NCBI GenBank assembly: GCA_027030065.1
Contig: JALVFK010000132.1
Location: forward strand, 8,977 to 72,976
Origin: Desulfurococcales archaeon
GTDB taxonomy: Archaea; Thermoproteota; Thermoprotei_A; Sulfolobales; WANQ01
Length of the DNA stretch: 64,000 nt
Direction: 5' to 3'
The notes under the pieces were generated by a model, which ran no database searches, was not told where the DNA came from, and saw only the letters and a program-made list of their open reading frames with translations. A program made the position numbers and the translations under genes. Positions 4,566-32,147 of the stretch are shown here, piece after piece (the stretch's first letter is position 1; each line of letters begins with the position of its first letter).

Positions 4566-4618
4566 TACTAGAAACTATACGTTTCACAGTATGTAAAAAG
4601 AGCAGAGTTGTAACAATA

Positions 4619-9389: not shown

Positions 9390-10301
9390 GTGGTGTATAG
9401 TGACATGGATGTAACAAGTATTGCGAGAATGCAAATAGATCCGGGATCAATAATAGGGTTGTTGTTCTGGATAATATTATTCATAGTATTGTTTTCGCCA
9501 TCTCTACAATTCCATTCGTTAAAGTCGGCTCGTCTTAGACTAATAGGTGCTATAGAGAGAAAGTATGGGTTCCGCCTAATAACACTAATACATAGGCAAG
9601 AAAAAGTAGGTTTCTTCGGAATACCAGTCTACAGATTCATCGATATAGACGACTCGGAGGCCGTTATAAGAGCTATTAGAACAACACCACCTGATAGGCC
9701 CATAGCATTAGTCCTCCACACACCCGGAGGACTTGTTCTTGCAGCAGCACAGATAGCCATGGCCTTAAAGAAGCATCCAGCAAAGAAAATAGTAATAGTC
9801 CCGCACTATGCTATGAGTGGTGGTACGCTAATCTCTCTAGCAGCCGATGAAATATGGATGAGCCCTGAAGCAGTACTCGGGCCCCTTGACCCCCAGTTAA
9901 GCATGGGTCAAGGGATAATGGCTCCAGCACCCTCGATATTAAAGGTGGCTAAAATAAAAGGTGATAAAGCATCAGACCACTTACTAGTAATGGCTGATGT
10001 AGCTGAGAAGGCTATAAAAGAAGTACAAGAATTCATTATAAGATTACTCGAAGACAAGATGCCTAAAGAGAAGGCAGAGGAACTGGCAAGACTTCTAACA
10101 GAGGGTAAGTGGACCCATGACTACCCAATAACAGCTGAAGATGCCATTAAGATGGGGTTGCCAGTAAAGACGGAGATTCCACCCGAAATATACGAGTTAA
10201 TGGAACTATACCCGCAAGCACCAGTAAATAGACCTGGTGTAGAATATTTGCCATATCCTGTAATACCTCATCCAAGTCATCGCCAGGTGAGTCGACAGTA
10301 A
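9390..10301 (+). CDS. Membrane-bound ClpP-class serine protease (SDH/DUF114 family)
   Basis: N-terminal TM, then LITLIHRQE...RPIALVLHTPGGLVLAAAQIA...HYAMSGGTLISLAADEI. This pattern is typical of the serine dehydrogenase proteinase family. Confidence 0.7.
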   Translation: MVYSDMDVTSIARMQIDPGSIIGLLFWIILFIVLFSPSLQFHSLKSARLRLIGAIERKYGFRLITLIHRQEKVGFFGIPVYRFIDIDDSEAVIRAIRTTPPDRPIALVLHTPGGLVLAAAQIAMALKKHPAKKIVIVPHYAMSGGTLISLAADEIWMSPEAVLGPLDPQLSMGQGIMAPAPSILKVAKIKGDKASDHLLVMADVAEKAIKEVQEFIIRLLEDKMPKEKAEELARLLTEGKWTHDYPITAEDAIKMGLPVKTEIPPEIYELMELYPQAPVNRPGVEYLPYPVIPHPSHRQVSRQ

Positions 10302-10432
10302 TTAAAAAGATGTTAGTGATACTGTTCTCAGTGAATCTAGTAGAAGTTTTTTATAGCATTAAAATACTTTCTTTTTCTCCGAGTTAGTGTAAGGATAGCT
10401 GAATTCTACGTTAAGTATAGGTCTGGTGGATA

Positions 10433-11806
10433 TTGATGACAACGATACCGGGGCTTCAAGCGGAATGGGATATTCTTGTGAAGATAGTTGTTAGTTTCCT
10501 AGCGGGGGCTCTAATAGGGTTGGAGAGAGAGAAGGCGAAGCGTACTATCAGTAAGGAAGAATCTGAGTATGGTACGCCTCCTGGTGTCCGTAGTTTTGGT
10601 TTTATGGCCTTGCTTGGGTCTTTAACTATAACTATCCCTGTCTTTGCTTCAAAGACTATTGAGGGTTTTGGGCAGACTATAGCGGTATCGATTTCTCTTG
10701 GGATGAGTATTTTATCCATACTAGTCGTCGGGATCTATAGTTATTATAGATTGATCATTCTACGTGAGCCTGGAATAACAACTCTTGTTGCATTGGCATT
10801 AGCTTATGCTATAGGTGTTGGTATAGGATTAGGGTTATTTCTTGAAAGCATTGCGGCAAGTGTTCTGATAACATTTATGCTCGCTGTAAAACTACGTATT
10901 GAGGAAGCCGTAAGGATATTAACGTATGAGGAACTGTTATCGGCTCTAGAGATAGGGATAATAGTATTTCTCCTAGGCCCCTTCCTAGCAGTTGATATAA
11001 CCGACCCCTGGCTACATGTGATTAACCTAAGAGTTCTCTACGGCTTCTTTGTGATAATTCTTATCCTATCGTATATCGGTTATATTCTTGTAAAGGCCTT
11101 AGGACCGAGAGCTCTTACATACTTTGCTTTCTTTGGAGGCTTAGTTCATAGCGAAGCAACAGTTATTAGTATAACTAGGCTCGGTTTAAAGATAAAGAGA
11201 GAAGATGATATAATTAAGGGTTCTATAGCGGCTATAACAGCTATGGTTCTAAGAAATCTCTTCCTAATACTGGGCTTAACCGTTCTAATAGCTCCGCCTG
11301 AAATTCTTGGAATGGAGCTATTACTGACTGTAACGGGGTTCCTCTTAACAATTCTGGTTGGAGTATTCATTCTATCCTTCCGCAAGATGAGTAAGGGAGA
11401 GAAGCTAGAAACACTGCAAACTGGTCTAACCATAGAGAAGCCGGTAAGCTATTCAATAGCGTTAAAGGCTTTACTTGTATTCATTGTGGTTCTATTGGCT
11501 ACAACCATAGCATCAAATATTGCAGGTGAAACGGGAGTCCTTATATCAAGTATTGCTGGTGGTCTTGTTAGTGCGGAAGCAACAATCTTCACTGCTAGTA
11601 CGCTTCAAATTACTGGTAGGATAAGTAGTCAGATAGCCTTGGCTTCAGCCATATTAGCGACTTCTTCAGCGGTACTCAACAAGCTAATATATATGAGGGT
11701 GGCTGGTGCTTCGGGTTCCCTTCTACGGAAACTAGTTTTATCAATAGTATTAATGACTATACCATTGATAATAACTGCTCTAGTACTATTAGGAATAAGC
11801 ATATAA
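10433..11806 (+). CDS. MgtC/SapB-family membrane protein with DUF4010-like C-terminal half
   Basis: LVKIVVSFLAGALIGLEREKAKR is the MgtC N-terminal signature. The 457-aa protein is polytopic. Confidence 0.65.
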   Translation: MMTTIPGLQAEWDILVKIVVSFLAGALIGLEREKAKRTISKEESEYGTPPGVRSFGFMALLGSLTITIPVFASKTIEGFGQTIAVSISLGMSILSILVVGIYSYYRLIILREPGITTLVALALAYAIGVGIGLGLFLESIAASVLITFMLAVKLRIEEAVRILTYEELLSALEIGIIVFLLGPFLAVDITDPWLHVINLRVLYGFFVIILILSYIGYILVKALGPRALTYFAFFGGLVHSEATVISITRLGLKIKREDDIIKGSIAAITAMVLRNLFLILGLTVLIAPPEILGMELLLTVTGFLLTILVGVFILSFRKMSKGEKLETLQTGLTIEKPVSYSIALKALLVFIVVLLATTIASNIAGETGVLISSIAGGLVSAEATIFTASTLQITGRISSQIALASAILATSSAVLNKLIYMRVAGASGSLLRKLVLSIVLMTIPLIITALVLLGISI

Positions 11807-12049
11807 TCATAAAGTACAGTACTAGACAATTAGGTCTACTAGACGAGATTACTCAAGAAGAGGTGACCTACCACGAGACCCCATAAAGCAGTTCTAACCA
11901 TACTCGTAGATGATTACACAAGTACTTCTGGGCTTTTAGGAGAGCACGGCTTATCAATTCACATAGAACTCTACACAGAGAACCATTTCGAGAGCATATT
12001 ATTTGATACAGGACAATCAGATAGGGCGATTAAACATAATAGCGATGTT

Positions 12050-12748
12050 TTGGGCACGGATCTTGCATCGATAAAAACAGTTGTACTGAGCCATCGCCAC
12101 TATGATCATACAGGTGGTTTATTGTATATAGCAAAGAAGTTCTACGATAAAAATAGTAGATTAATAGTTGTCTCTCATCCATGGCTCTTTAAGCCAAGCC
12201 TATATATTAGTGAGAATAGGCAGAGTCTCGACATAGGCATACCCTATGCTCGCCAACTACTAGAAAACTATAATACAAGATTTATATTAGTTAGAACACC
12301 TCTGCAAGTAGCGCCAAGAACCTTCTACTTAGGCGAAATAAGGAGGGAGCTAGATGTATCAAAATATACTCAGGGCTTCTACACAGTACTAGATACCGGA
12401 GAACTAGTACCAGACAATATACCCGATGACACGGGTATAGCCTTGGAGGTAGAGGGGTTGGGAACAATAGTTATCGGTGGTTGCAGTCATAGCGGTATAG
12501 CGAATATAGCATTACAGGCAGCTAGGATAACCAATAAGAGAGTACATGCTGTTCTAGGGGGATTCCACATGAACAAGTATAGTCTAGAAGACATAAAGGA
12601 GACTGTAAGAGTGTTCCGAGATCTTGGAGTAGAAAAAGTATATGCAGGCCACTGTACTGGTCCTAGAGCTGAGAGAATACTAGGAGAACTCTTAGGTGAG
12701 AAATACGTAAAAATGTATTCGGGTATGAAACTCGTCTTCACTCAGTAA
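12050..12748 (+). CDS. MBL-fold metallo-hydrolase (COG1237 type); conserved N-terminus lies upstream of any canonical in-frame start (see finding)
   Basis: VVLSHRHYDHTGGL (HxHxDH motif), GGCSHSGI, GGFH. The in-frame upstream sequence 11885-12049 encodes KAVLTILVDDYTSTSGLLGEHGLSIHIEL...ILFDTGQS, which belongs to the same fold. Confidence 0.75.
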   Translation: MGTDLASIKTVVLSHRHYDHTGGLLYIAKKFYDKNSRLIVVSHPWLFKPSLYISENRQSLDIGIPYARQLLENYNTRFILVRTPLQVAPRTFYLGEIRRELDVSKYTQGFYTVLDTGELVPDNIPDDTGIALEVEGLGTIVIGGCSHSGIANIALQAARITNKRVHAVLGGFHMNKYSLEDIKETVRVFRDLGVEKVYAGHCTGPRAERILGELLGEKYVKMYSGMKLVFTQ

Positions 12749-12882: not shown

Positions 12883-14619
12883 GTGAAGGACAAGTGGATA
12901 ATATACGCCTACGTATCACTAGTAGCCTCATGGCTTATAGTAAGTATAGTAAAGATGTATCCATCAGTAATACTGGAAATATATGAGCTAGCATCAGCCG
13001 AAGAATATAGTTACATCTATGCCTTAGCAATAGTCATATTATTTACCTTTATCAAACGAATAAATACAATAGAACCACCAAGGACAAACTCTATAATCTA
13101 TGGTATATCTCTCGCATCACTAGCCCTAACATCCTCACTATACTTCTACAGCATATCATTCGGAATAGCGGAATGGTACTGGATAAGAATAATAGCCCTA
13201 GCCTTCTGGATAATAGGAATAACACTACTAGCACTAGGACTAGACAATGCATCAAAACTAAAAATACCACTACTCTCACTATTCCTACTAATACCAATAC
13301 CAAGAACAATAATGGATTCAACAGCAATAGTCTTATCAAAAATACTCGGCAGAATAGCCGCCCCCATAGTAGGAGCAAAAATAAGCGAGTCAGCAACAGG
13401 ACTAACAGTACTAAGCGTGATGGGGCCAAACGGCAAACCAATACACTTCGAAATAGCCGTAGGCTGTAGCGGAATAGTAAGCCTAACAAGCATAATAGCC
13501 GTACTCCCAATAATAGCCGACATACTAGCAACAACCCATACAACACTAAGAAGAAAAATATATGCACTAATAGTATCAGTAACATCACTCACAATAATAA
13601 TGCTATTCGGAAACTTACTAAGGATCATAGGAATACTATTGGCCGCAAAATATATGGGACACCAAGCGGCAATGGAATTCTTCCACTCCACACCAAGCAT
13701 AATATTTGCAATAGTTGCAAGCATACTTGTAGTTCTCATATTGAATAAAATACTATCGAGATACAAAAGCAAACCAATTGAAAACATACATAATTATTCT
13801 AGTATTAGAGTAGAAGATAAGCATCCATATAAAAATATGGCATTATCGCTAATACTAACAGTTCTAGTAGTCGTATCACTATACAACGTCAATATAATAA
13901 ACCTAGTTCGTCCAGGAGAGCAACATGTATCACAAAATAACATAGTTAACGTTAACACATTGTTTCAGAATATATCCTTTTATATAGCACACAATACTAG
14001 TATAAAGTTTAAGGGATACGTGGAGAGAAAGGATTGGGAAAGACTGCTTGGATTACCGCTGATACTGGTAATGCAAGTTCAATTCCATAAAAAGAACATG
14101 CTTATGTATATAGAGGCTTCAGGGAGTCCTCACTTATTCCATAGCTGGCCAGTATGTTTAGCCTACCAGGGGTATAGCATTGATAAATCATGGATAGATA
14201 TTATAAAAGTAGACAATAAAACTATAGAAATAATATTTGTAACGTATAGAAGAGGAAATATACTCTACATTATGGGATATACTAAGATAGCGGTAATGGC
14301 AGATTACGGCGGTATACTAGGTCCCGCGTACTATAAAATAACGTTATTATCATCATCTTCTCTAAGAAACTATAACGCAATATATGATTACTACGGGATA
14401 ATTTTAGATGCGATGAAAACATATATAGAGTTTCTAGATAATAAGACAAGTATAATAACTGTTGAACCCGAAAAAGAGTATCATCTACTAGAAGTAAATC
14501 CAATAATTATTGCACTAGTATCATCCATTGTAGTTAACATAGTGTTATTTACAATATTATTATATTATGCGGCTAAAACGGGGGAGTTCTCTCTAAAAAG
14601 AGTTAGGGGTAGTCAGTGA
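12883..14619 (+). CDS. Archaeosortase/exosortase-family transpeptidase fused to an EpsI-like C-terminal domain
   Basis: EIAVGCSGIVSL (Cys motif), FGNLLRIIG (Arg motif), EFFHSTPS (His motif) within ~8 TM helices. C-terminal part: LFHSWPVCLAYQGYSI, resembling EpsI (H-x-P-x-x-C-L-x-x-x-G). GTG start. Confidence 0.7.
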   Translation: MKDKWIIYAYVSLVASWLIVSIVKMYPSVILEIYELASAEEYSYIYALAIVILFTFIKRINTIEPPRTNSIIYGISLASLALTSSLYFYSISFGIAEWYWIRIIALAFWIIGITLLALGLDNASKLKIPLLSLFLLIPIPRTIMDSTAIVLSKILGRIAAPIVGAKISESATGLTVLSVMGPNGKPIHFEIAVGCSGIVSLTSIIAVLPIIADILATTHTTLRRKIYALIVSVTSLTIIMLFGNLLRIIGILLAAKYMGHQAAMEFFHSTPSIIFAIVASILVVLILNKILSRYKSKPIENIHNYSSIRVEDKHPYKNMALSLILTVLVVVSLYNVNIINLVRPGEQHVSQNNIVNVNTLFQNISFYIAHNTSIKFKGYVERKDWERLLGLPLILVMQVQFHKKNMLMYIEASGSPHLFHSWPVCLAYQGYSIDKSWIDIIKVDNKTIEIIFVTYRRGNILYIMGYTKIAVMADYGGILGPAYYKITLLSSSSLRNYNAIYDYYGIILDAMKTYIEFLDNKTSIITVEPEKEYHLLEVNPIIIALVSSIVVNIVLFTILLYYAAKTGEFSLKRVRGSQ

Positions 14620-15350
14620 TGTCTTTGCGTAGAATATACTTTATTAGATATACACTGATGTTATCGGTGTATATTTTATTATTTATTTTAGTAGCCTTTA
14701 ACTTTGAAATAGAACTTAATAGAATGCTTTTCATTTATGGCACACTAGCAATAGTTCTAATTAATATAAGGATTTTGCATCCTAGGCTAGGAAACTTTAT
14801 TGTCCTCCCCATTATATCCTATACTATAACGTTATTATTAGTTTATGTAGGGATTATAGGATTTAGCATCTCTCTCGGAGTAATTTATGCTATACTTTTC
14901 ACTGGTATGATATTATTGAATGGATTGCCCGCTGGCCTTGATAATATGTTGAAAAAGATATTTGAGACAGGAAAAGTAGATGCAGAATTACCGTTTATGT
15001 GGATGTTATTGTTTATTGCCTATATGTTCTCGTTTCTTTCGGAAGCCAGTATGATTACAGATTACGTGTATTATTTAATATACGTTATTGCTGGCCCGTT
15101 AGTTGAGGGACTTCTTATAAGCTCCGACTACTATAGTAAGGCTATGAAAGGGAATAATTGTATCTGTTCAAGAATATTATTTATTAATGCCTTATATATT
15201 ACACTAATATTTTATCCTAACCTATTATACATGATTATCAGCATTATCGGTAATTTATCTAAAATTATATTAGGTTTTAAGAAGGGTTTAGTTATCGACT
15301 ATGTTGCTAGAACACTAATAGTAACAAAAACATTATTAGGTGTCCTTTAG
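14616..15350 (+). CDS. Polytopic membrane protein, unknown family
   Basis: 244-aa hydrophobic ORF. Its start overlaps the archaeosortase stop (GTGATG). Confidence 0.5.
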   Translation: MMSLRRIYFIRYTLMLSVYILLFILVAFNFEIELNRMLFIYGTLAIVLINIRILHPRLGNFIVLPIISYTITLLLVYVGIIGFSISLGVIYAILFTGMILLNGLPAGLDNMLKKIFETGKVDAELPFMWMLLFIAYMFSFLSEASMITDYVYYLIYVIAGPLVEGLLISSDYYSKAMKGNNCICSRILFINALYITLIFYPNLLYMIISIIGNLSKIILGFKKGLVIDYVARTLIVTKTLLGVL

Positions 15351-15352
15351 AC

Positions 15353-16060
15353 ATGAATAGAACTCTAATGGTGCTAGCGATAAATGTACTGTTTGGAAGT
15401 ATTATATCGTTAATTCTATCAATTACTGTAATTAATTCAACAGAACTACGAATAGCTAGTGTTTCATTTCTCCTAGTAGGTATGGTTATGTTACCAATAG
15501 GCTTAGGTGTTGAAAGCGAAATTAACAGAATACGGCAAATAGAAGCAGAAGCATTTAAGCAGAATATTAAAAGAATACTAGAAGAATTCCTAATATACGA
15601 TAAGAGGATGTATATTTGTCCGTCAGCAATGTGTAAAACAACCTCGATTCTACTACCAATAGGTGAAGTAAATGTTAAATACATGGTACCTGCAAATAGG
15701 TTCATTACCGTTTATAAGGATAAACTCATGATAATGCTTGAAACTCCAGGGCAGAGAATGTTAAGAAAACTATTAGAGGAAGTAAGAGAAACAATTGATT
15801 TAAATACATTAAACAGTCTAGTCAAAGATTTATCAACAGTATTATTGGGATCAACAGTTGAAATATCTATAGCGAAGCAAGGTAATAGATATAGTATATC
15901 CGTTAATAAAGTAGATAGTAAAGTAGGAGAGTTTGAGTCTTGGATCATTTTAGCAGGTCTCATCGGATCTATAGTAGCTGAAGCATTAAGAAAACCAATT
16001 CTACTGGATAATTACGTATATGAGCATGGTACGTTAAGTATGGAGTTGATCGAGATATGA
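15353..16060 (+). CDS. Membrane-anchored protein (2 N-terminal TM plus ~170-aa soluble domain), unknown family
   Basis: 235-aa ORF starting 2 nt after the previous stop. No recognisable motif. Confidence 0.45.
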   Translation: MNRTLMVLAINVLFGSIISLILSITVINSTELRIASVSFLLVGMVMLPIGLGVESEINRIRQIEAEAFKQNIKRILEEFLIYDKRMYICPSAMCKTTSILLPIGEVNVKYMVPANRFITVYKDKLMIMLETPGQRMLRKLLEEVRETIDLNTLNSLVKDLSTVLLGSTVEISIAKQGNRYSISVNKVDSKVGEFESWIILAGLIGSIVAEALRKPILLDNYVYEHGTLSMELIEI

Positions 16061-16338
16061 AGGTCTTAGAAACTTCTCTGAAAGAGTATAAACTACTGAT
16101 ATATTATTCAATAATAGCTGCTATGATAAATATAGGGTTATCTTTATTTGGTGAATGGCGAGTAGATATATATGTTGCACTACAAATACTAGCATTCATA
16201 ATGTTACGTTTTACTATGGCCCCGTTTCACCCGACGGTAGAAAAATATCTCGGTAAGATAAGTACCATACTATTAATTGTTTTAATAGTAATAATTATGT
16301 TCAGAGTACTTACTGTGGTGGGAATACTTGGTATCTAG
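16057..16338 (+). CDS. Small membrane protein (3 TM)
   Basis: 93-aa hydrophobic ORF with an ATGA overlap with the upstream gene. Confidence 0.4.
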   Translation: MKVLETSLKEYKLLIYYSIIAAMINIGLSLFGEWRVDIYVALQILAFIMLRFTMAPFHPTVEKYLGKISTILLIVLIVIIMFRVLTVVGILGI

Positions 16339-18409
16339 AAGTGTTGTTATAATAATGATTGTAGTACTAATAGTGGCTATTTCCGATGCTCCAATTAGTA
16401 TGGCAACACTAATAGAAAACCCTCATGTGGATCCAGATAAGATAGAGGAAAGACTTGATCCGATAAGCCTTGTAATAATATACATTAATGTACTAAGAGG
16501 TTTAAGCGACCTAAATTTAAACGAATCGCTAATCCATGTAGATATTCTAAAAAATGCTTCAGTACCATACGATATACGATTAGTAATGAATAAATTAAAC
16601 GAACTCATTAGCGAACTTGCGTTGTTAATAAATAATACAGTATACGAACTTAATAAAACAGAAGAATATTTAGAAGAAAATAATATAGTAGAAGCAAATA
16701 AATCAATAAGTAAGGCAGCACTCTATCTATTTAAGGCTAATGCTACACTTAACGAACTTCTTTCGGCGTGGTACGAGTTTAAAAGACATCTATCAATGTA
16801 TGTTGTACATGAATACAGACCTAGGTTCTTAGAATATACTGTTCAACTAGAACTATTATTTAAGAGATTAGATAGGCTACTTAATAAGCTATATGAATTA
16901 AAACAAGATCTAGAGACAAAAATTGTAGTGTCTACGATAGTGTCTCCGAACAAAATTAACACTTCTATAACTATATATTATTATAATCAGAGTATACACC
17001 CGGGTGGAATATTAGTATTAAACGGTTCTCTCATAAGTGAGGAAGGCATACCCTTAGCAAATAAAAGGCTGAGAATATATGTATATGTACAAAATAAAAG
17101 ATTAATAGAAAAAGAAGTCTTCACTAATAGCCAAGGAATATTCTATGCTAACATAACAATGCCACAGACTTATTATTTATGGAGGGCTATGAAGCCAGGT
17201 CTCGTTAAATTTAATTCGTCTATCTACGTAGTGTACACACCTCTAACTCAAGATAATTACTCTGGATCTCATGTAATATTAAACACCACGTATTACTACT
17301 ATAGGAGCAAGTTAAAGGTTATAGGTAAGACCACAGCCTATGTAGGCTCAAATCTAACATATAAAATTAAGATACTGCCTCCTAATGTAGCAATTAATAG
17401 GACATTGAGGATTTTCCTAGATAGTAAAAACATAGCTAATATATCACTACCATTAGCTAGTAGTTATCGTACAATAAAGATAAAGTTACCGTCAAATATA
17501 TCAATAGGCCAACACTTCATAAATATAACATTACTCGGTTATAAACAGTTTTCACTCGATTCTATAAGACTTCCAATAATAGTTCAACATATACCGATAT
17601 ATGTTAGTGTAAGTTATCCTCAAACAATAGTCTACCCTATACAGAGGCTACGAATCAATGGTAGTATCACGGACTATTATGGTGAGCCTGTTGTAAATGC
17701 TACTATTATCGTGGGTGATGAGAGAGCATTTACTAACATTAACGGTTCTTTTAATATGTCTATTTCTATTACAAGCATCAATATTATTGGCGGTCTAGTA
17801 GTGTTAAATTTAACAGTAAAACCAGTAGAGCCCTGGTATCCCGTAGTAAATAAGACATTAAGGATTAACTATATTAATCTATACACAATAGTTGGTATAA
17901 CTTCATATATAGCCATTGCTATAATTATTGCTCCGACACTCGTAAAGATAAATATTTACAAGAGGTCAAGGGTAGAGAAAAAAGCAATAAAGATAAGCAA
18001 AATGCTAAGAGGCCCTAAACTAGCAACCATAGGCGAGGAAGAAAAAATACCGGGTAATATTCTGGAAAGAATGCTAGCTAAAAGAAAGGCAAGCATATCA
18101 ATTAGTGAGACAGCTCTAAAAATGATTAAACTAGAATATAGGTTAAAGAGAAATATCATTGTAGATAAACTACTAGAAATGCTCTTAGTACTAGGTACAA
18201 AATACTCAAAGCCTTTATCTTCGGAGACGTTGAGAGAATATGTATTAAGGATAAGTAGAGATATGCCAAGACAAATCGCTGAAAAAGTAAGCCTCATAAT
18301 AACCCTTGTTGAAAAAGAACTATACTCTAAGACAGAACTTGCTCTAGATGAAAAAAGAAAATTAATGACGCTGATAGAGGAGGTTATAGACTATGTACGT
18401 AGAATATAA
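16328..18409 (+). CDS. Large surface protein: signal/anchor, coiled-coil region, beta-rich repeats, TM helix, DUF4129-like cytoplasmic tail
   Basis: N-terminal hydrophobic segment and many N-x-S/T sequons. ITDYYGEPVVNATIIVGDERAFTNINGSF is a carboxypeptidase-regulatory-like strand pattern. TM helix IVGITSYIAIAIIIAPTLV. Tail ...ETLREYVLRISRDMPRQIAEKVSLIITLVEKELYS resembles DUF4129. Confidence 0.5.
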   Translation: MVSRSVVIIMIVVLIVAISDAPISMATLIENPHVDPDKIEERLDPISLVIIYINVLRGLSDLNLNESLIHVDILKNASVPYDIRLVMNKLNELISELALLINNTVYELNKTEEYLEENNIVEANKSISKAALYLFKANATLNELLSAWYEFKRHLSMYVVHEYRPRFLEYTVQLELLFKRLDRLLNKLYELKQDLETKIVVSTIVSPNKINTSITIYYYNQSIHPGGILVLNGSLISEEGIPLANKRLRIYVYVQNKRLIEKEVFTNSQGIFYANITMPQTYYLWRAMKPGLVKFNSSIYVVYTPLTQDNYSGSHVILNTTYYYYRSKLKVIGKTTAYVGSNLTYKIKILPPNVAINRTLRIFLDSKNIANISLPLASSYRTIKIKLPSNISIGQHFINITLLGYKQFSLDSIRLPIIVQHIPIYVSVSYPQTIVYPIQRLRINGSITDYYGEPVVNATIIVGDERAFTNINGSFNMSISITSINIIGGLVVLNLTVKPVEPWYPVVNKTLRINYINLYTIVGITSYIAIAIIIAPTLVKINIYKRSRVEKKAIKISKMLRGPKLATIGEEEKIPGNILERMLAKRKASISISETALKMIKLEYRLKRNIIVDKLLEMLLVLGTKYSKPLSSETLREYVLRISRDMPRQIAEKVSLIITLVEKELYSKTELALDEKRKLMTLIEEVIDYVRRI

Positions 18410-19301
18410 ATGGGTTCTCTTGTTATCAATCGTACTATTATCTCTGGCATCATATCTCTTAATCTATTATCCATCAACAATGAATTTCTATGTGGAGAAT
18501 CCGTTCTGGAATGGTTATAAAGATTTTGTCAACTTATTTAATGCAACACCTATCCTAACAAGGTTTGACTTTGTAAGAATACTTAACCATATATCTTTGA
18601 GCAATCTATCATCTAAAAGCAAAGTATTAGTTACGATATCCTATGAGAACTATACAGATCAAGAAGTAAAACTCCTAAATAAATTTATAATTAATGGTGG
18701 TACATTAATAGTATTAAACGATTTCTCATCAGCAGGAAATCAGTTATTAAATAAATTAGACATAGGAGTATATTTCAACATCTCTGGTATCCTAATAGAT
18801 CCTTTATACTATTATAAGGATCCTCACTTACCAAAAGTAGAAGCAAAAGAAAATAATACAACATACACTATAATTCTCAATTATGCGTCTATAATTGAAG
18901 GAGATATAAGTAGAAACGAAATACTCATACGCTCTTCGAGATTTTCTTATTTCGATGTGGATAATAGTAGTTCGTGGAGTCCGGAGGAACCCACAGGTCC
19001 TTTCATAGTAGGTGTTGTTAAGAAATTGGGTGCTGGAAAAATAATTATAATAAGTGACCCAAGCATTTGGTTAAATGCAATGCTTAATATTGGAGATAAT
19101 TATGTTTTTGCTAAAACGTTACTAGACGGAAAAACAATATATCTAGATCAGGTACATATACCTAAGAGTACACAAGAACAATTGAGAGAAAGAATAATAT
19201 ATCTTATATCGCTGCTAAACTCTTATGGTATAGCCCCATTAATAATAGCAGTGTTTACTCTAATTATCTATAGGCTATTTTTAGGTGTAAAACAGCGATG
19301 A
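18393..19301 (+). CDS. DUF4350-like protein (N- and C-terminal TM anchors)
   Basis: LLNKFIINGGTLIVLNDFSSAGNQLL and KIIIISDPSIWLNAMLNIGDNYVFAKTLL match the DUF4350 pattern seen in MoxR-associated clusters. Confidence 0.55.
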   Translation: MYVEYKWVLLLSIVLLSLASYLLIYYPSTMNFYVENPFWNGYKDFVNLFNATPILTRFDFVRILNHISLSNLSSKSKVLVTISYENYTDQEVKLLNKFIINGGTLIVLNDFSSAGNQLLNKLDIGVYFNISGILIDPLYYYKDPHLPKVEAKENNTTYTIILNYASIIEGDISRNEILIRSSRFSYFDVDNSSSWSPEEPTGPFIVGVVKKLGAGKIIIISDPSIWLNAMLNIGDNYVFAKTLLDGKTIYLDQVHIPKSTQEQLRERIIYLISLLNSYGIAPLIIAVFTLIIYRLFLGVKQR

Positions 19302-20881
19302 TACTTGACCCGAAATCACTTAGTAGAATAGCAGTATCTTCTATAATATTAATTATATTATCATTAGTAGTATACATATCGGTAACTAAGAATATTCTAG
19401 AAAACCTATCTATTATATCAATAGTAATATTACTAATATTTTACTTAAAAATAAATCATCCCTCATATGCTGGTTTAATACTCCATGCAATAATGTTGTT
19501 TTCTGTGGGATTAATTCCTATAGGATACCTAATGCCCTATCTACTATTATCGTTGTTTATGTCTATATCATTCATTCTCTATGTTTTTGCGTTTTCGAAT
19601 ACATTGACAATAGATATAAATAAATGGCCTACATCCTCCCTAATAATATTGATAACTAGTTTTCTTGGATTTATACTGGCGTTCATTAATATTCGGGTTA
19701 CTATTACATCAATATTATTGTTGTCAGCGATTTTGGTAGTAGGTAGTATAATATATTTAGGATTGAATAGAGGGATACAAGTAATAAAATCTTTTCAAGT
19801 AAGTATGCTTGAAGGAGAAAGAGTTGAAAAAGATATATTGTTTTCAAATAAATTAATAATACCTATCCACATTATAACAAATGTTAGGAATGGTAATGGT
19901 GTAAGCATAAAGATACCAAGAATAAGAGTAGAACCTGGAGAAACTGTTAGAATACCAGTTATAATAGATGCCTCGGAAACCGGTATTTATGATATATATC
20001 TAGACTTCTTTATCGAGGATATATTTCATCTAACAAGGCTTTATAAAAGTGTAAAAGCGACCATAAAAATAATGCCCAAGATAAAAACGGCCCTTCTGGC
20101 AGCACACAAGCTCCTTGCCCGCATACCTAGCGAGATATTGGAGCATGCTGATACAAAGAGCATAGGGGAAGTAGAATTAGTGCCCAAGATTTTATCTTCG
20201 AGAAGAGGAGAATACTATGGTGCACGTCAATATGTTCCAGGTGATGATCTAAGCCAGATACACTGGAAAAAATCATTGTCTAAGGGTATACTAATATCTA
20301 AAGAGATGAAGAAAACTCATTCTTATTCCATAGCTATACTTGTTGATCTAACAAGCTCTAGTAATAGAGACTTTACAGAAATACTTTACAAGACGCTAAC
20401 ATCTCTAATTCTAATATCACTCAAAGACCCTTTACGTGTAGTAACATTAGCGCTATATGATATGGAAAACATATACCTTGTTGTTAGAAACTATTCTGCA
20501 GCCAAAGCTCTAAATAGTTTAACAAAAATAGTTGAAGAGGGAGGAATAGGAACTCATAGAGTATACAAGAAGGTCTTAGATAAGCCAATGATTTTGCCCA
20601 TATTATCATCAAATAATGAAAAACTAAAGGCGTTGTACGAGGTTTTAGTAGATAGTATTAGAGAGAAATATGTGTGGAAAATAATTGCTGAAGTACTGAG
20701 AGGTTTTGAAGGACGAAATATCCAGATAATACATGGTCAAAGCAGTATTAGTGATCTATATTATTATGTTAAGTTATTGTTGCGAAAGAAGGGGTATATA
20801 CTAGAAGAACCAGTTGAGATAAGTCCTAGATCCTTATATGAAAAAGCAGTAACCGAACCAATAGGATTACTTGCCCACTAA
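19298..20881 (+). CDS. DUF58-family protein with N-terminal multi-TM domain
   Basis: GEYYGARQYVPGDDLSQIHWKKSLSKGILISKE is the DUF58 signature, followed by a VWA-like region (IAILVDLTSS). Confidence 0.75.
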   Translation: MILDPKSLSRIAVSSIILIILSLVVYISVTKNILENLSIISIVILLIFYLKINHPSYAGLILHAIMLFSVGLIPIGYLMPYLLLSLFMSISFILYVFAFSNTLTIDINKWPTSSLIILITSFLGFILAFINIRVTITSILLLSAILVVGSIIYLGLNRGIQVIKSFQVSMLEGERVEKDILFSNKLIIPIHIITNVRNGNGVSIKIPRIRVEPGETVRIPVIIDASETGIYDIYLDFFIEDIFHLTRLYKSVKATIKIMPKIKTALLAAHKLLARIPSEILEHADTKSIGEVELVPKILSSRRGEYYGARQYVPGDDLSQIHWKKSLSKGILISKEMKKTHSYSIAILVDLTSSSNRDFTEILYKTLTSLILISLKDPLRVVTLALYDMENIYLVVRNYSAAKALNSLTKIVEEGGIGTHRVYKKVLDKPMILPILSSNNEKLKALYEVLVDSIREKYVWKIIAEVLRGFEGRNIQIIHGQSSISDLYYYVKLLLRKKGYILEEPVEISPRSLYEKAVTEPIGLLAH

Positions 20882-20885
20882 GTTG

Positions 20886-21419
20886 CTATTTATGTGGTGG
20901 ATAAAACCAATCCCATGGTTTCCCGCATCTTGGATCACTAGTTTTACCGTTTATCTTTAATGGAATAATACTTTTATCATTCCACGGTCTCCTCTCCTCA
21001 TCGGGATTCTTATAATCATATAGTCTTGTCGTAAAGTATACTAGTATAGCCGGCTCGTTGCCTACAACTTTAAAGCCGTGCCAATAATGTCCTGGAACCC
21101 TTAGGATTTGAGGCTTGCTATCAGATAATACTACTTCCACAAGATGCTGTGATTCCTCATCGTAGGCGCATACTTTTATTGAGCCCTTTACAACTATAAA
21201 ATAGTCGACCTGTCCCCTCAAGTGTCTATGCCAAGCCCGTACTATGCCTGGATAAGTTACCGACCAATTAGATTGAACTATAATGTCTTCCTCTAATAGC
21301 TCTTTCCAATCGCTCCTAAAGATCTCGTGAAACATCCCGCGCTCGTCAATAAATCTTTCTAGTTCAGCTATCCTCATGCCCTTCAATGGAAGTTCGAGTA
21401 CACGTCCTTTTATGGGCAC
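20886..21419 (-). CDS. rmlC: dTDP-4-dehydrorhamnose 3,5-epimerase-like cupin
   Basis: FIDERGMFHEIF, RAWHRH, VPGHYWHGF. 177 aa. Confidence 0.75.
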   Translation of the reverse strand: MPIKGRVLELPLKGMRIAELERFIDERGMFHEIFRSDWKELLEEDIIVQSNWSVTYPGIVRAWHRHLRGQVDYFIVVKGSIKVCAYDEESQHLVEVVLSDSKPQILRVPGHYWHGFKVVGNEPAILVYFTTRLYDYKNPDEERRPWNDKSIIPLKINGKTSDPRCGKPWDWFYPPHK

Positions 21420-21421
21420 TT

Positions 21422-22462
21422 TTATCTCCCTTTAAACAATTTCATCCTATAAACTCCTCTTATATAAAGTATTAAGCCTACAAGCTTAGTTGTGATTAGC
21501 TTCATTTTGAGTAAATCGTATAAACTATTTTTCCTTGAAATTGATTTAACCAGGAGCCTCTTATTCAGAATATGGCTACGTTTCTTCCACAAACTTATTA
21601 ATGCTTTTATGAATGTGAAAGAGTCAGCTTTGTCTTTTCCATGTATACGGCTGAATATGGAGCCAGCAATGTATACGGCTCCAAGGACAGGTATTGCTAG
21701 TAGCACGAGGGGCCAGGGATAGGTTGCGGCTATAGTGAGTAACCGGTTTCTCCTACCAAAATATAATGAGACATAGGGCTTCTTTCTAGTTGAATGCTGT
21801 CCTATGTGATATGCTATGGCTTCTGGTACATAGATGGCTCTATATCCGTGAAGCCATAGTCTTAAGGCAAGGTCTAAGTCCTCATTATATAAGAAATATA
21901 GGCTATCCATTCCTCCTATCCTAAAAAATAGTTTTCTATAAATCATCGCACATGCAAATGTGGCATACAAGATATTCATTCTCTTATTGTACTGTCCTAA
22001 ATCTGGTTCTCCCTCACCTAGGTGAAATCCGTGCCCCAGTATATCCATAAAACCTCCTACGCCATCAAGTAGCCCCGTGTATGCATTGTATATTTTCGGT
22101 TGTACCTCACCAACATCATTATATTCTATAAGTGTTTCTACTAGTTTATTAATACAGTCTTCACCAAGTATTATATCAGGATTTATGAATAACAAGATAT
22201 TGTTCCGGGCCTCTAACGCCCCTATATTACATGCTAACGGAAATCCAACGTTCTTTCTAAGCTTCAATACTCGTACCGGATGTGGAATCCTCATCCTCAA
22301 TACTGTTTCTATTGTATTATCACTGCTATTATTGTCTACTATTATAATCTCGTCTCTTGGGCCGAGACTATTTCTTAGCGAGTTGAGACATTTTCCTATA
22401 TATCTAGCTGAATTATAAGTCACTATTATAACAGATACACCGGGTCTCTCCATATTGATCAT
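21422..22462 (-). CDS. Family-2 glycosyltransferase (possible rhamnosyltransferase)
   Basis: VSVIIVTYNSARYI, IIIVDNNSSDNT, NVGFPLACN, YNEDLDL. Adjacent to rmlC. Confidence 0.8.
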   Translation of the reverse strand: MINMERPGVSVIIVTYNSARYIGKCLNSLRNSLGPRDEIIIVDNNSSDNTIETVLRMRIPHPVRVLKLRKNVGFPLACNIGALEARNNILLFINPDIILGEDCINKLVETLIEYNDVGEVQPKIYNAYTGLLDGVGGFMDILGHGFHLGEGEPDLGQYNKRMNILYATFACAMIYRKLFFRIGGMDSLYFLYNEDLDLALRLWLHGYRAIYVPEAIAYHIGQHSTRKKPYVSLYFGRRNRLLTIAATYPWPLVLLAIPVLGAVYIAGSIFSRIHGKDKADSFTFIKALISLWKKRSHILNKRLLVKSISRKNSLYDLLKMKLITTKLVGLILYIRGVYRMKLFKGR

Positions 22463-22473
22463 CCTGTTACTGT

Positions 22474-23520
22474 CTAATCGTTTTTAATTATATATGATAA
22501 ATACTTCATAACAGCTTTATAGGAATATTTTTTCTCAATAATTCTCCTAGATTTTTTCGAAAACTCTCTGATATTTTCTAAAGTATATATTATACTATAA
22601 GCAAGTTCTCTCGGTGAATTTATGTCTATAAGCATTCTTTTACTAGCTAGGTCTTGGAACCCTATTTCTGTAGACATTATGACTGGAGTCCCACAGGACA
22701 TTGCCTCTAGAACGCTTATAGGAGGATAAGCCATTTGTATAGGCTTTACTGTATATAATAGTACGGTAGCTTTATTGTAGATTTTGACCTTCTCTTCTTC
22801 ACTTAATACCTTACTTGTTACATTAACATTATTATGTAGGTTATATTTCTCTATAAGTATCTTAAATAATTTAATCCATACTTCATCGCTGTGATGTCTT
22901 AGTGTAACAATAAATAATGCTTTATAATCTATTTTCTTATTCAAAATAATCAGAGCTTTAACTATTGAGGTCATGGGGAATCTCGGATAAAAAAGAGGGC
23001 CTACGTAGAGTATTGTTGGTTCATCAGTTTTAGGTCGTATAGGTTTAAAGAAGTCAGTGTTTAGTGGAGGCGGTATATAGATAACTTTTTTGTTGGAATA
23101 ATTTGACTGATATGTAGTGATAACATGATCGTATATTAAGGAAACCATGCGGAGATATCTGTTATCGACCTTATGATAAAGGATTTTGATAAATCTTCCT
23201 CGTTTAAAGAACGGGATCAAAATGTTTCGTAAGTTTATATCCAACACGGTATCGTTTTTATCTATGTTCCTTAATGCTAAGATCTCGTCTCTAGGGCTTA
23301 TAGTTTTCTTATTTAGGATTATATTGTTAGCTTTTATGTCTTCTGTAGCTCCTATATAACTTGAGTCGAGAAATTCTCTTCTATAGTTTCTCTTTATAGA
23401 TGTTATTTTTATTTCTCCCATATACATTTTCCTTAATAGAGCAAGATAGTCCATAGCTATTGCGGCTCCCGCCGAATCACGAGGAAATAATATCTCGTTT
23501 CCAATAATATGGATGCTCAT
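22474..23520 (-). CDS. GT-B (family 4/1) glycosyltransferase
   Basis: C-terminal ...SVLEAMSCGTPVIMSTEIGF is typical of GT4. Confidence 0.7.
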   Translation of the reverse strand: MSIHIIGNEILFPRDSAGAAIAMDYLALLRKMYMGEIKITSIKRNYRREFLDSSYIGATEDIKANNIILNKKTISPRDEILALRNIDKNDTVLDINLRNILIPFFKRGRFIKILYHKVDNRYLRMVSLIYDHVITTYQSNYSNKKVIYIPPPLNTDFFKPIRPKTDEPTILYVGPLFYPRFPMTSIVKALIILNKKIDYKALFIVTLRHHSDEVWIKLFKILIEKYNLHNNVNVTSKVLSEEEKVKIYNKATVLLYTVKPIQMAYPPISVLEAMSCGTPVIMSTEIGFQDLASKRMLIDINSPRELAYSIIYTLENIREFSKKSRRIIEKKYSYKAVMKYLSYIIKND

Positions 23521-24716
23521 TTCTCTTCTGTCACCTGATTTATTATTTCTAGTTCCCGTTGAGCTAGTCTTCTCACATCAAAGTCTCTTGCCATTAATTT
23601 AGCATTACTAGATAGATAGGTCCAAAGTCTCTCGTTATTTGTAAGTAATAGTATCTTATCTGAAATTTCTTCAACATTATCATATTCAACTATAATGCCA
23701 GAATTATAGTAGTCTACTACTTTCTTTATGCTACCAACACTTGATGCTATGAATGGTAGTCCTACAGCTGCGTACTCTAATATTTTTAATGGCACCATTA
23801 TCTTGTTGGTTAGATTGGAGGGCTTAAAGAGGGCTGCGCCTATTGATGACCTGGAAAGGAACGTGATGACTTCATTGTAGGGTCTTCTGCCAGTCAAGTA
23901 TACTTTCTCCTTAATGTCTAATTCCTTGATTAATTTAATTATGTATGAGCCATAGGCTGTGTTTAGGTCTCCTATTATAACTAGTCTTAGATTATGTTCC
24001 TTTCTAGCCGCGATGGAGAAAGCTTCTACTAATTTATCTATTCCAGCCCATTCCTCTATGGCTCCAGCGTAAACTATTGTTCTATTGTTGATATTTGGTT
24101 TATGTCTCATTTTACGCATGATCTTGTTTATTAGTTCTAGGTTAACACCATTAGGTATAAGTGAAACTCTCTTATCCCTTCTAATATGTAGGTCTTCTTT
24201 GAAAAGTATGTCTGATACAGCTATCACGTAGTTACTTCTTGATATTACATTATATTCTGTAGATCTTACTATGAGCTTCATGAGGGGGTTTTTATAAAAC
24301 TCATAGAATCTATCCACGTCCTCATATACTATAGGTATGTTGTTATCTACATGTAATGCGAGTATACCAGCGAATAGAGGAGAGGCTAGAATAGCGTCAT
24401 AGGATTTCTCTTTTAACTTGAACTTCAATAAAGTACCTATAGGTATCGTACATAAGAGTTTTCCATAGTCGGTTGGCAAGAAAGATGTCGTAGTATTTAC
24501 GCCGTTATCTATGCTCCAGAGATAGTCTGCAGGATTCTTGAGAAGAGTTGTAATGCTTTCAAATATTTTATTATAACCTCTTCTACTATTAACCATATTC
24601 GTATAGTCTATTATTGTTATTTTGAGTCTTCTAGCTAGGTATGGAAGAAAGCTTTTCAGTCTATACCAGTGTCTTGCATGCATTTCGGTAGTTATGATAA
24701 GTATTCTCTTAGCCAT
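23517..24716 (-). CDS. GT-B (family 4/1) glycosyltransferase
   Basis: IVYAGAIEEWAGIDKLVEAF...LRLVIIGD...LEYAAVGLPFIASSVGS. Confidence 0.75.
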   Translation of the reverse strand: MAKRILIITTEMHARHWYRLKSFLPYLARRLKITIIDYTNMVNSRRGYNKIFESITTLLKNPADYLWSIDNGVNTTTSFLPTDYGKLLCTIPIGTLLKFKLKEKSYDAILASPLFAGILALHVDNNIPIVYEDVDRFYEFYKNPLMKLIVRSTEYNVISRSNYVIAVSDILFKEDLHIRRDKRVSLIPNGVNLELINKIMRKMRHKPNINNRTIVYAGAIEEWAGIDKLVEAFSIAARKEHNLRLVIIGDLNTAYGSYIIKLIKELDIKEKVYLTGRRPYNEVITFLSRSSIGAALFKPSNLTNKIMVPLKILEYAAVGLPFIASSVGSIKKVVDYYNSGIIVEYDNVEEISDKILLLTNNERLWTYLSSNAKLMARDFDVRRLAQRELEIINQVTEEK

Positions 24717-26035: not shown

Positions 26036-26056
26036 ATATTAGACCCCCCTTTCTCC

Positions 26057-27832: not shown

Positions 27833-28968
27833 GTTAATTCCTCATATAGTTTCTCAAGCTGATCTACTTTTTTATCAATAGTATGTTCTCTAGCAAATAC
27901 ACGCGCACTATAAGACATTTTTCTCGCTAATTCTCTATCAACTAATAGTCTGGTAACTGCTTCTGCGAGATCTTTAACATTGCCTGGTTCCACGAGAAAT
28001 CCCGTTATACCTGGTTTAACTAACTCTCTTACAGCACCTACATTGGATGCAACGACTGGTGTTCCAAGGGCCTGTGCTTCAAGTAATACGTTGGGCGTAT
28101 AATCACTTATTGAAGGCAATACGAGTAGTATTGCATGCGCTATTGTTTCAATCTTTTCTTTTTCACTGACAACGCCTCGGTACACTATGTTTGCATCAAG
28201 ACCGTAATCTAGTATTCTTTTCTTAACGGTTTTAAAATATTCCTCGTCTCTCGATCCTATCAGTATCAACTTAAAAGATAGTCCTCTATCTCTAATCATA
28301 TTTAATGCATCAATTAGTAAGTGAATGCCCTTTCTAGGAATAATCCTACCGACGTATACTATTGTATTATCTTTATCTTCAAACTTATAGTTGTATTCGA
28401 GTAGACTCTTGTCTATGCCTGGAAACAATATTTTACGCAATCTCTCCTCGTTGAACCCTTTCTCCGCGAACCACTGGTACTCTAAATCAGTATGAGTTAA
28501 TATAACATCTATTTTCTTCTCGAAGATTCTTAAAGCTCTTACAACTAATGGGAAAAAGAGTTTTGAGGAAAGATATTCGAGCTCAACTGCTGGGTGATGG
28601 GGCTCTAATACTATTCTAAATCTGTGTGTGCTTTTTAATCTAAGAACCTGGAAGAGAGGAGGGTGAATATTATGTAAATGTATAATCTCTGGGTTCTCCT
28701 TACTAATAACAGTCTCCAAATTCTTTAAGAGTCTTGCATAGCCTATTTTTAGATTAAGAGATTCAAGCTTATAGACTTTAACATCATCTATTACCTCCAT
28801 ACCAGTATTAGTAACACTCTTCTGAGTAACAGGATCATAAGTACTACTCGTAATAGCGACACTATGCCCCCTTCCTGCAAGTTCTTTTGCAACATTTCTC
28901 ACTATAGTTTCTATCCCACCTATTGATGGAGGGAATGGATAATAAGTTGAAACTATGAGTATTCTCAA
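27829..28968 (-). CDS. GT4 glycosyltransferase
   Basis: MRILIVSTYYPFPPSIGGIE N-terminus; LLEAQALGTPVVASNVGA C-terminal motif. Confidence 0.85.
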   Translation of the reverse strand: MRILIVSTYYPFPPSIGGIETIVRNVAKELAGRGHSVAITSSTYDPVTQKSVTNTGMEVIDDVKVYKLESLNLKIGYARLLKNLETVISKENPEIIHLHNIHPPLFQVLRLKSTHRFRIVLEPHHPAVELEYLSSKLFFPLVVRALRIFEKKIDVILTHTDLEYQWFAEKGFNEERLRKILFPGIDKSLLEYNYKFEDKDNTIVYVGRIIPRKGIHLLIDALNMIRDRGLSFKLILIGSRDEEYFKTVKKRILDYGLDANIVYRGVVSEKEKIETIAHAILLVLPSISDYTPNVLLEAQALGTPVVASNVGAVRELVKPGITGFLVEPGNVKDLAEAVTRLLVDRELARKMSYSARVFAREHTIDKKVDQLEKLYEELT

Positions 28969-28979
28969 AGCTCTTAACC

Positions 28980-31273: not shown

Positions 31274-31283
31274 TTACATCACG

Positions 31284-32144: not shown

Positions 32145-32147
32145 GGT

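Follow-up and report, generated by a model that had tools for sequence, protein, structure and literature searches.

Does an exosortase-family enzyme that shares an operon with components of a MoxR-associated membrane module also share a function with them? The question is raised by a locus on contig JALVFK010000132.1 (assembly GCA_027030065.1) of a Desulfurococcales archaeon, a hot-spring metagenome scaffold of which a stretch of 64,000 nucleotides (positions 8,977 to 72,976 of the forward strand) was analyzed; this whole stretch is hereafter called the window, and coordinates are given within it. Seven co-directional genes of the window encode an exosortase-family protein with a fused outer domain (gene 1, the sortase for brevity), three membrane proteins (genes 2-4), a surface protein with a DUF4129-like tail (gene 5), a DUF4350 protein (gene 6) and a DUF58-like protein (gene 7). 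The first-pass annotation had described the locus as an archaeosortase-EpsI fusion coupled to a MoxR-less DUF4129/DUF4350/DUF58 module and held that no described system links the two. As detailed below, sortase and module are linked across distant lineages of Thermoprotei, and this linkage suggests, for a MoxR-linked membrane complex, a role in the processing or anchoring of cell-surface proteins.

MoxR-DUF58 modules with DUF4350 and DUF4129 partners are, to our knowledge, widespread in archaea and present in bacteria, and we know of no tested function for them. A link to a family of enzymes whose reaction is well understood, the cleavage of a C-terminal anchor followed by transfer, provides a concrete, testable hypothesis for these modules; it also defines an unnamed exosortase clade in Thermoprotei and bears on the way glycoprotein envelopes are built and anchored in hyperthermophilic archaea.

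Linkage of the exosortase and the DUF4350/DUF58 module

The sortase is linked to the module in seven of the eight sampled sortase-bearing lineages, and clearly so in six, with sortase identity falling to about 20-30%. In the closest relatives, which form the window clade (L003, L004 and L006; sortase identity of 58-81%), all seven genes are found in the same order; because the unrelated genes upstream of gene 1, coding for metallo-beta-lactamase (MBL)-fold, MgtC and NfeD-like proteins, are retained as well, this synteny is weak evidence of linkage. In the distant loci, the flanks differ, the gene order is shuffled, and the sortase is located at the 5' end, at the 3' end or beside MoxR. Thus, L010 shows the order MoxR-230-227-82-630-847-sortase, with the 847-aa protein being a DUF4350::DUF58 fusion, and L013 repeats this order and continues with a 147-aa gene and two DUF1616 genes. 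The arrangement in L015/L016 (sortase-MoxR-217-224-85-600-DUF4350-593) is that of the window with MoxR inserted after the sortase. A short three-gene form, sortase-MoxR-fusion, adjoins cren7 in L018, a family 2 glycosyltransferase (GT2) gene precedes sortase-MoxR in L017, where the contig ends directly after, and in L005 the sortase is immediately preceded by the end of a gene-7-like protein.

Given that the association is kept in seven of eight lineages at this level of divergence and with shuffled gene order, the coupling of sortase and module is functional rather than due to chance. The link seen in the window holds far beyond close synteny; the seven-gene order is kept in L003, L004 and L006 and, with MoxR inserted, in L015/L016. 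Homology of genes 3-7 across the distant loci was found by sequence and profile comparison. In three of these loci, gene 6 is fused to gene 7: a single protein matches gene 6 and gene 7 with E-values of 2e-16 and 9e-14 (L010_847), 2e-31 and 6e-20 (L013_815), and 3e-21 and 5e-18 (L018_805), respectively. This recurrent fusion independently ties the two proteins together.

Organization of the seven-gene operon

The seven open reading frames (ORFs) and their junctions match the first-pass annotation exactly (Table 1), with overlaps of 4, 4, 11, 17 and 4 nt and one 2-nt spacer; all the motifs quoted there (AVGCSGIVSL, GNLLRI, FFHSTPS, LFHSWPVCLAYQGYSI and YVPGDDLSQIHWKKS) are present as well. An independent gene caller run on the source contig yielded the identical seven calls, with the start of gene 2 placed one codon later. 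Because they are conserved in order in the relatives, and because homologs of genes 1, 3, 4, 5, 6 and 7 are detectable in far more distant loci, these are not chance ORFs. Upstream of gene 1 is a 134-nt gap, with GGGGAG right before the GTG start codon and a TTTATAA box about 90 nt upstream; at the other end, an rmlC-like gene is convergent with gene 7, with 5 nt between the two. The GC content over 14-20 kb is 0.31-0.32, compared to 0.37-0.40 in the flanks, and remains low across 14-40 kb of the window (0.31-0.36).

Table 1. Coordinates and predicted properties of the operon and related features of the window (TM, transmembrane)
Feature	Position	Strand	Description
Gene 1	12883-14619	+	578 aa; exosortase-family membrane Cys transpeptidase, residues ~1-292
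Gene 1, catalytic-type residues	13465-13467; 13621-13623; 13684-13686	+	Cys195; Arg247; His268
Gene 1, region after the core			K/R-rich loop, TM helix 315-337, outer domain, last TM helix 540-565
Gene 1, outer domain	~13915-14472	+	~190 aa, alpha/beta, residues ~345-530, between TM helices 315-337 and 540-565
Gene 2	14616-15350	+	244 aa; membrane protein with 6-7 TM helices
Gene 3	15353-16060	+	235 aa; two N-terminal TM helices, then ~170-aa soluble domain; no family
Gene 4	16057-16338	+	93 aa; small protein with 2-3 TM helices
Gene 5	16328-18409	+	693 aa; signal peptide, helical and beta-sandwich outer domain, TM helix 515-544, ~150-aa cytoplasmic tail
Gene 6	18393-19301	+	302 aa; DUF4350 (arCOG01314-type), outer domain, short basic tail
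Gene 7	19298-20881	+	527 aa; about six N-terminal TM helices, beta-rich domain, DUF58 (vWA-like) core
DUF1616 (arCOG02884-type) membrane gene	34307-34882	-	PF07760, 44.3 bits (cut-off 31.6)
DUF1616 (arCOG02884-type) membrane gene	34913-35848	+	PF07760, 40.9 bits (cut-off 31.6)
Orphan MoxR AAA+ ATPase	40480-41442	-	320 aa; AAA_3, 174.7 bits; AAA_lid_2, 85.2 bits
Candidate substrate	45325-46311	+	328 aa; signal peptide, long Thr-rich region, TPGWAW, TM helix, RTKS C-terminus
Second MoxR	52467-53441	+	AAA_3, 222 bits; in separate canonical MoxR-DUF58 module, 51131-55494

An exosortase clade outside the named subfamilies

Gene 1 matches the Pfam exosortase/archaeosortase family (PF09721) with 65.4 bits (cut-off 25.7) and the superfamily signature TIGR04178 with 34.9 bits (cut-off 23). 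When it was classified against the ArtA-F and Xrt hidden Markov models, no subfamily cut-off was reached: the scores were 46.9 bits for XrtA (cut-off 208), 43.9 for EpsH (105.55) and 41.2 for XrtD (400), and none of the Art models of NCBIfam gave a match.

To see the family, an exhaustive profile search was needed: word-indexed protein searches returned just 7, 2 and 6 relatives of the sortase, and scans of genomes and metagenomes with the sortase alignment recovered four loci, three of them distinct, the back-translated patterns being too narrow. With the outer domain of gene 1 alone as the query (alignment A2), the profile search retrieved 81 clusters at 50% identity, nearly all of which are 525-595 aa long and carry the outer domain at the same position, so that the two-domain layout defines the family. 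The members found so far come from Thermoprotei only.

Among 74 near-full-length members (alignment A3), PF09721 is matched at E<=0.01 by 62 and TIGR04178 by 61. The catalytic-type residues align with those of the superfamily and are kept in the relatives, Cys195 in 68, Arg247 in 71 and His268 in 64 of the 74 sequences; EEYSY and IPxP are near-invariant as well. Bacterial-type models match much of the family (XrtA 41 members, EpsH 39, XrtV 33 and XrtD 29, none at the subfamily cut-off), and the Art models match between none and three members each (ArtE 3, ArtC 3, ArtF 1), never at the cut-off. The label archaeosortase thus applies at the superfamily level and fails in the sense of ArtA, since the Xrt models match the family more often than those of ArtA-F. 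As judged by sequence comparison, gene 1 belongs to an unnamed exosortase clade of Thermoprotei that lies outside the ArtA-F and Xrt subfamilies.

The core of gene 1 is polytopic, with about eight TM helices that appear both in TM prediction and in an AlphaFold2 model built from alignment A3 (pLDDT 87, pTM 0.84). In the model, a cytoplasmic K/R-rich linker connects the helical core to a TM helix, which is followed by an alpha/beta domain and the last TM helix; basic loops lie on the side of the membrane opposite the outer domain.

The outer domain contains the near-invariant motif E411...H420-x-W-x-x-C425-L-x-x-Q-G-Y, with Glu411 present in all 74 members, His420 and Gln429 in 71 each, Trp422 in 69 and Cys425 in 68. 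The first-pass annotation had taken this domain for EpsI, and this assignment did not stand. Neither in Pfam nor in NCBIfam did any of the 74 full-length members match the EpsI models (PF11984/DUF3485 and TIGR02914) at E<=0.01. When 10 isolated outer domains were compared to Pfam, one (P0050) matched PF11984 with E=0.034 and 14.3 bits (cut-off 26.1), over the conserved H-x-W-x-x-C motif; none of the 10 had a match in NCBIfam. A tblastn search of the exosortase core against plasmids, in which bacterial EpsH-EpsI sequences were sought, gave no match. Some bacterial EpsH proteins possess a C-terminal region homologous to EpsI, and epsH genes are nearly always found among exopolysaccharide (EPS) genes (PMC1569441). 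The outer domain of gene 1 therefore appears EpsI-like in position only, and its homology to EpsI is unproven.

Genes 2-7 and the predicted arCOG01314 system

Genes 2-4 match no Pfam or NCBIfam family, in agreement with the first-pass annotation, and are traced among the relatives to different extents. At the position of gene 2, proteins of similar size and topology are encoded (230 aa in L010, 218 aa in L013 and 217 aa in L015), with marginal sequence support for the distant equivalents (hhalign probability of 52%). The window-clade profile of gene 3 finds L013_225 (E=1.8e-11), L010_227 (8.9e-8) and L015_224 (6e-3). For gene 4, phmmer detects L013_95 (E=5e-10), L015_85 (2e-9), L010_82 (9e-8) and L012_86 (2e-6).

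The assignments of genes 5-7 made in the first-pass annotation held, with the scores for genes 5 and 7 near or below threshold. Gene 5 has 24 N-X-S/T sequons in the outer domain and none in the tail (ETLREY...LYSK), which is a divergent DUF4129, a domain found at the C-terminus of TgpA-type proteins. The beta-sandwich of the protein also matches CarboxypepD_reg with 23.5 bits, and its L003 ortholog does so with 32.5 bits (cut-off 32.3). Gene 6 is a clear DUF4350 protein (PF14258, 53.2 bits; cut-off 30.4) with two hydrophobic segments, residues 1-19 (signal peptide) and 268-293 (C-terminal TM helix). Gene 7 contains the DUF58 core motif and matches the true DUF58 protein encoded at 53441-54757 (63.8 bits) with a BLASTP E-value of 8e-5; DUF58 proteins are the usual partners of MoxR. 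A MIDAS-like DxTxS motif in gene 7 is not conserved in the orthologs. The protein has 2 sequons in 527 aa, and its vWA-like core is predicted to be cytoplasmic. The topology signals agree with one another, with the sequons of gene 5 split between the outer domain and the tail and the basic loops and tails lying on the predicted cytoplasmic side.

DUF4350 (arCOG01314), MoxR, immunoglobulin (Ig)-plus-vWA and Ig-like proteins, DUF1616 and small membrane proteins were predicted in 2015 to form an archaeal secretion or membrane-remodeling system (Makarova, Galperin, Koonin; PMC5898192). Genes 2-7 fit this parts list, gene 7 as a putative Ig-plus-vWA protein; the list comprises a DUF4350 protein that bears a signal peptide along with a C-terminal TM helix, MoxR, an Ig-plus-vWA (DUF58) protein, Ig-like 'S-layer-like' proteins, DUF1616, and small proteins with 2-3 or about 5 TM helices; the link to the sortase is the new element. 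The word 'sortase' does not occur in the text of PMC5898192, and the system described there has no exosortase component, in contrast to the clusters of the window and of at least six other Thermoprotei lineages. Two further differences are that, in the window, MoxR is detached from the operon by 20 kb, and that the vWA-like domain of gene 7 appears to be cytoplasmic rather than secreted. In a literature search, we found no paper that places MoxR, DUF58 or DUF4350 in a single system together with an exosortase or archaeosortase, and none that tested the 2015 prediction. The claim that no described system links the two thus stands for the link, whereas the module itself had been predicted.

The exosortase fold, the Cys/Arg/His residues and the best partial matches (XrtA, EpsH, XrtV and XrtD) are shared with the bacterial PEP-CTERM/XrtA and XrtD systems, as are the C-terminal outer domain fused after an 8-TM core and the adjoining polysaccharide or glycosylation genes. 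The differences are the archaeal host, the lack of any score at an Xrt cut-off and the failure of the EpsI models; no PEP-CTERM proteins, PrsK/PrsR or PrsT were seen here. With ArtA/PGF-CTERM of Haloferax volcanii, the locus shares the superfamily and the logic of the catalytic residues, and the candidate substrate described below, with its Thr-rich stalk, PGW, TM helix and basic tail, is reminiscent of the PGF-CTERM in the S-layer glycoprotein. In contrast, ArtA has neither a fused outer domain nor a MoxR module, and the ArtA-F models barely match the present family.

MoxR ATPases

The description of the system as MoxR-less is correct for the operon, in which neither the ORF list nor a Pfam scan contains an ATPase, but it is not a trait of the system. 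A MoxR gene lies beside the sortase in five relatives (L010, L013, L015, L017 and L018), within the gene string in L010, L013 and L015, and also beside the module genes in L012. In the window, the best-matching MoxR is encoded 20 kb from the operon, as the last gene of a minus-strand rmlA-rmlB-rmlD string, with no DUF58 neighbor. This orphan MoxR is 47.8-55.3% identical to the cluster MoxRs of the relatives, compared to 38.8-48.4% for the second MoxR of the window, and is the closer one in every case. When the window is compared with L015 and L017, MoxR appears to have been lost in the window clade from the interval that separates the sortase from gene 2, and the orphan MoxR, given its similarity to the cluster MoxRs, likely serves the system in trans.

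The second MoxR belongs to a module (51131-57242, plus strand) that is a paralog of the studied system without a sortase. It consists of genes for a 276-aa DUF4129-like protein (18.8 bits), a 174-aa protein, MoxR, the DUF58 protein mentioned above and two multi-TM proteins of 246 and 583 aa, the larger of which looks like a GT-C/PMT-type glycosyltransferase.

Surface-glycan genes and candidate substrates

Between gene 7 and the orphan MoxR lies a glycosylation island that includes the rmlC-like gene, a GT2, several GT1 and GT4 genes, a UDP-GlcNAc 2-epimerase and another GT2, as well as the two DUF1616 genes and an ABC ATPase; rmlD, rmlB and rmlA come after MoxR. The surface-glycan genes at 20886-34279 and 41509-44517 (both minus strand) also include a nucleotidyltransferase-like gene and genes for 591-aa and 500-aa proteins without assignment. 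The plus-strand genes at 36611-40490, which directly precede the orphan MoxR, encode a 566-aa protein with TM segments at its ends, a polytopic protein of 500 aa without a Pfam match and an ABC-type ATPase (GPNGAGKT), and may represent a transporter that is part of the glycan island. In the relatives, DUF1616 adjoins the sortase/MoxR cluster in L005, L009, L012, L013, L015 and L017, and a GT2 gene adjoins it in L015 and L017 and is found about 3.5 kb downstream of the sortase in L009.

The protein that the first-pass annotation had singled out as a plausible sortase substrate, with PGW, a TM helix and a basic C-terminus, indeed possesses a signal peptide and a Thr-rich region. Its C-terminal sequence is ...QQVTPGWAWGAIVVAVIGLALAGFFAFRTKS, and no other Ser/Thr-rich ORF of the 64-kb window combines a C-terminal TM helix with a basic tail; it may belong to the system as a substrate. 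Together, the glycosylation island, the DUF1616 genes and this protein point to surface glycoprotein or glycan assembly.

The Thr-rich PGW protein is preceded by a gene for a 211-aa secreted protein (44685-45320) and directly followed by one for a 1207-aa secreted protein (46328-49951, plus strand) with subtilisin-type motifs (GHGTHVAS, SGTSMATPHVSG); the subtilisin-like protein and its neighbors may be a surface protease with a stalk or anchor protein. In L012, a 215-aa Thr-rich protein encoded directly upstream of MoxR (4464-5111) ends in IPWWVW, a TM helix and GRSRPSAPR, resembling the TPGWAW-TM-RTKS arrangement in the window.

A family of proteins of about 147 aa is encoded beside DUF1616, often directly after the sortase (L005, 1987-2439; L009, 3064-3519; L012, 12024-12479; L013, 11700-12143; L015, 20878-21312, minus strand). 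These proteins have a signal peptide, a helical region and a highly conserved C-terminus, SIPILxYxxxPRLYxxxWYRxRRKW, and could be a dedicated substrate or a subunit; no clear homolog was detected in the window (best E~0.9).

Proposed function and alternative explanations

On balance, the locus probably encodes a sortase-coupled surface-assembly complex that is conserved in Thermoprotei, with each single step of its action being much less certain. The core would correspond to the complex predicted in 2015, with the gene 6 product as an outer protein, the gene 7 product as the vWA-like component and the gene 5 product as the Ig-like glycoprotein, along with genes 2-4, MoxR and DUF1616; in this lineage, it would have recruited gene 1 as a dedicated Cys/Arg/His transpeptidase of the exosortase family, fused to an outer domain. 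One or a few surface proteins that are secreted and probably glycosylated would lose their C-terminal membrane anchor through cleavage by gene 1, which, by analogy with what is thought for ArtA and XrtA, would pass the cleaved proteins to an acceptor, with the Glu/His/Cys site of the outer domain possibly binding the substrate or the acceptor. MoxR, presumably supplied in this genome from 40480-41442, the vWA-like domain of gene 7 and the DUF4129 tail of gene 5 would act on the cytoplasmic face, where their role may be to assemble, remodel, gate or clear the complex, or else to hold the substrate anchor by its basic tail. The candidate substrates are the Thr-rich PGW protein or the products of genes 5 and 6 themselves.

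A more specific proposal, which we put forward tentatively and regard as possible rather than probable, is an ATP-coupled sorting machine in which MoxR, through the DUF58 protein and the DUF4129 tail, drives or gates an outward-facing exosortase-type transpeptidase that cuts and re-attaches surface glycoproteins. If this is true, ATP-coupled sorting would assign a function to the widespread MoxR/DUF58/DUF4350/DUF4129 modules for the first time. A sortase-type pathway of anchoring would then also have its first example in Crenarchaeota, which have been described as devoid of archaeosortases: in a 2018 review, these enzymes are confined to a subset of Euryarchaeota and absent from Sulfolobales (PMC6098224).

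Several observations weigh against the assembly of these parts into a sortase-coupled complex. With respect to the enzyme, 6 of the 74 family members lack Cys at position 195, and a structure search with gene 1 found no similar solved structure, the weak best matches being PsbP/DcrB/Eag-like folds. In the Guaymas-type clade (L007, 2838-3635; L009, 52-1278; L010, 7603-9219), Ser replaces Cys (FEINPMSSGV compared to FEIAVGCSGI), with Arg and His kept, and in five further family members the Cys position is taken by Trp, Tyr, Leu or Arg or is a gap; the Cys-less members may use a Ser nucleophile or be inactive scaffolds. With respect to the module, DUF4129 is the best Pfam match of the gene 5 tail in six of seven orthologs, with 13.6-22.1 bits that are all below the cut-off of 24.8, and gene 7 matches PF01882 with 21.1 bits (cut-off 23.4) over profile positions 2-49 only. 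The assignment of the orphan MoxR is one of similarity only, in a tree without an independent outgroup. As for the linkage, L014, the weakest family match, is a solitary gene without a module in its vicinity and carries Arg in place of the Cys, and L012, which was reached via gene 7 rather than via the sortase and is not among the eight sortase-bearing lineages, has the module with MoxR and no sortase within 10 kb. Finally, there is one candidate with a tripartite signal in the 64 kb, and one look-alike, in L012.

Among the alternatives, the one that survives best, although we consider it unlikely, is that gene 1 is not a cargo sorter but a maturation protease for a part of the machine itself, namely gene 5, gene 6 or the gene 6::7 fusion, cleaved at the membrane anchor. 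The architectures are suitable: in gene 6, the signal peptide and the outer domain are followed by a TM helix with a short basic tail (GVKQR), and in gene 5, a TM helix separates the outer from the cytoplasmic domain. That sortase and module are so tightly linked, one to one, suggests that the enzyme has a single dedicated target, and such self-processing would resemble the action of ArtA on a substrate that bears a long C-terminal extension, with an internal tripartite signal (PMC6098224). However, across three lineages, there is no conserved motif right before the TM helix of gene 5, where a loose P-x-(E/D)-P-x-Y about 20 residues upstream is unconvincing; the gene 6::7 fusions would have to be cleaved inside the protein; and L012 keeps genes 5-7 with no sortase nearby.

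Somewhat less probable still is an apparatus for the export and attachment of polysaccharide or glycan, comparable to bacterial EpsH/EpsI, in which gene 1 would act on glycan-linked material rather than in lipid anchoring. The better fit of gene 1 to the bacterial Xrt/EpsH models than to the Art models, the EPS context of bacterial epsH with its occasional EpsI fusions, the island of about 20 kb of rml, GT1/GT2/GT4 and epimerase genes that the operon abuts, the GT2 genes in or near three of the related loci and the relationship of DUF4350 to GldG/GIFT domains are all compatible with such a role. Exosortases, however, are thought to act on proteins, the homology to EpsI that the comparison invokes is the unproven part of it, and the clusters in L010, L013 and L018 have no adjacent glycosyltransferase.

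MoxR-vWA-YebA/TgpA operons have been proposed to be membrane-proximal Cys-peptidase systems (Zhang and Aravind 2012, PMC3495828). The two sets of parts differ in the peptidase alone, each comprising MoxR, a vWA-like partner of the DUF58 type, a DUF4129 domain and a Cys enzyme with several TM helices, so that the model could be transferred with the exosortase swapped in: in membrane-proximal quality control or degradation, the vWA-like protein would recruit, MoxR would unfold, and the membrane Cys enzyme would cut. We regard this as improbable given the geometry, with the exosortase site and the large glycosylated domains facing outward and MoxR and the vWA-like domain located in the cytoplasm, whereas the peptidase of the proposed systems is a transglutaminase-like enzyme in a cytoplasmic loop; moreover, the context is surface glycosylation rather than stress or proteolysis. 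A transglutaminase-type system proper was rejected, given that none of the seven proteins matched a transglutaminase model at E<=1. The weakest explanation, which we disfavor as very improbable, is that the sortase and the module are independent neighbors kept by shared ancestry, as could be argued from the extension of the window-clade synteny into unrelated upstream genes and from L012 and L014, each of which holds one partner without the other, but which is hard to reconcile with the adjacency in seven of eight lineages with wholly different flanks and a varying sortase position, at an estimated chance of only a few percent that a random gene lies within 10 kb of MoxR (assuming 1-3 MoxR genes in a 1.5-2 Mb genome).

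Other features of the window

An anti-phage defense system was considered and rejected: genes 1-7 had no match in PADLOC, and MoxR yielded only generic P-loop noise (E~0.006). No tRNA genes, sought as tRNA/integration signals, were found in the 64-kb window. The genes upstream of the operon (9390-12748, plus strand) encode NfeD/SDH-protease-like, MgtC/DUF4010 and MBL-fold proteins; because they are syntenic in L003 and L004 but absent from the distant clusters, they lie outside the system. On the minus strand at 58206-60662, an 818-aa ORF has features, read from the sequence by eye, that recall penicillin-acylase-type N-terminal nucleophile (Ntn) hydrolases.

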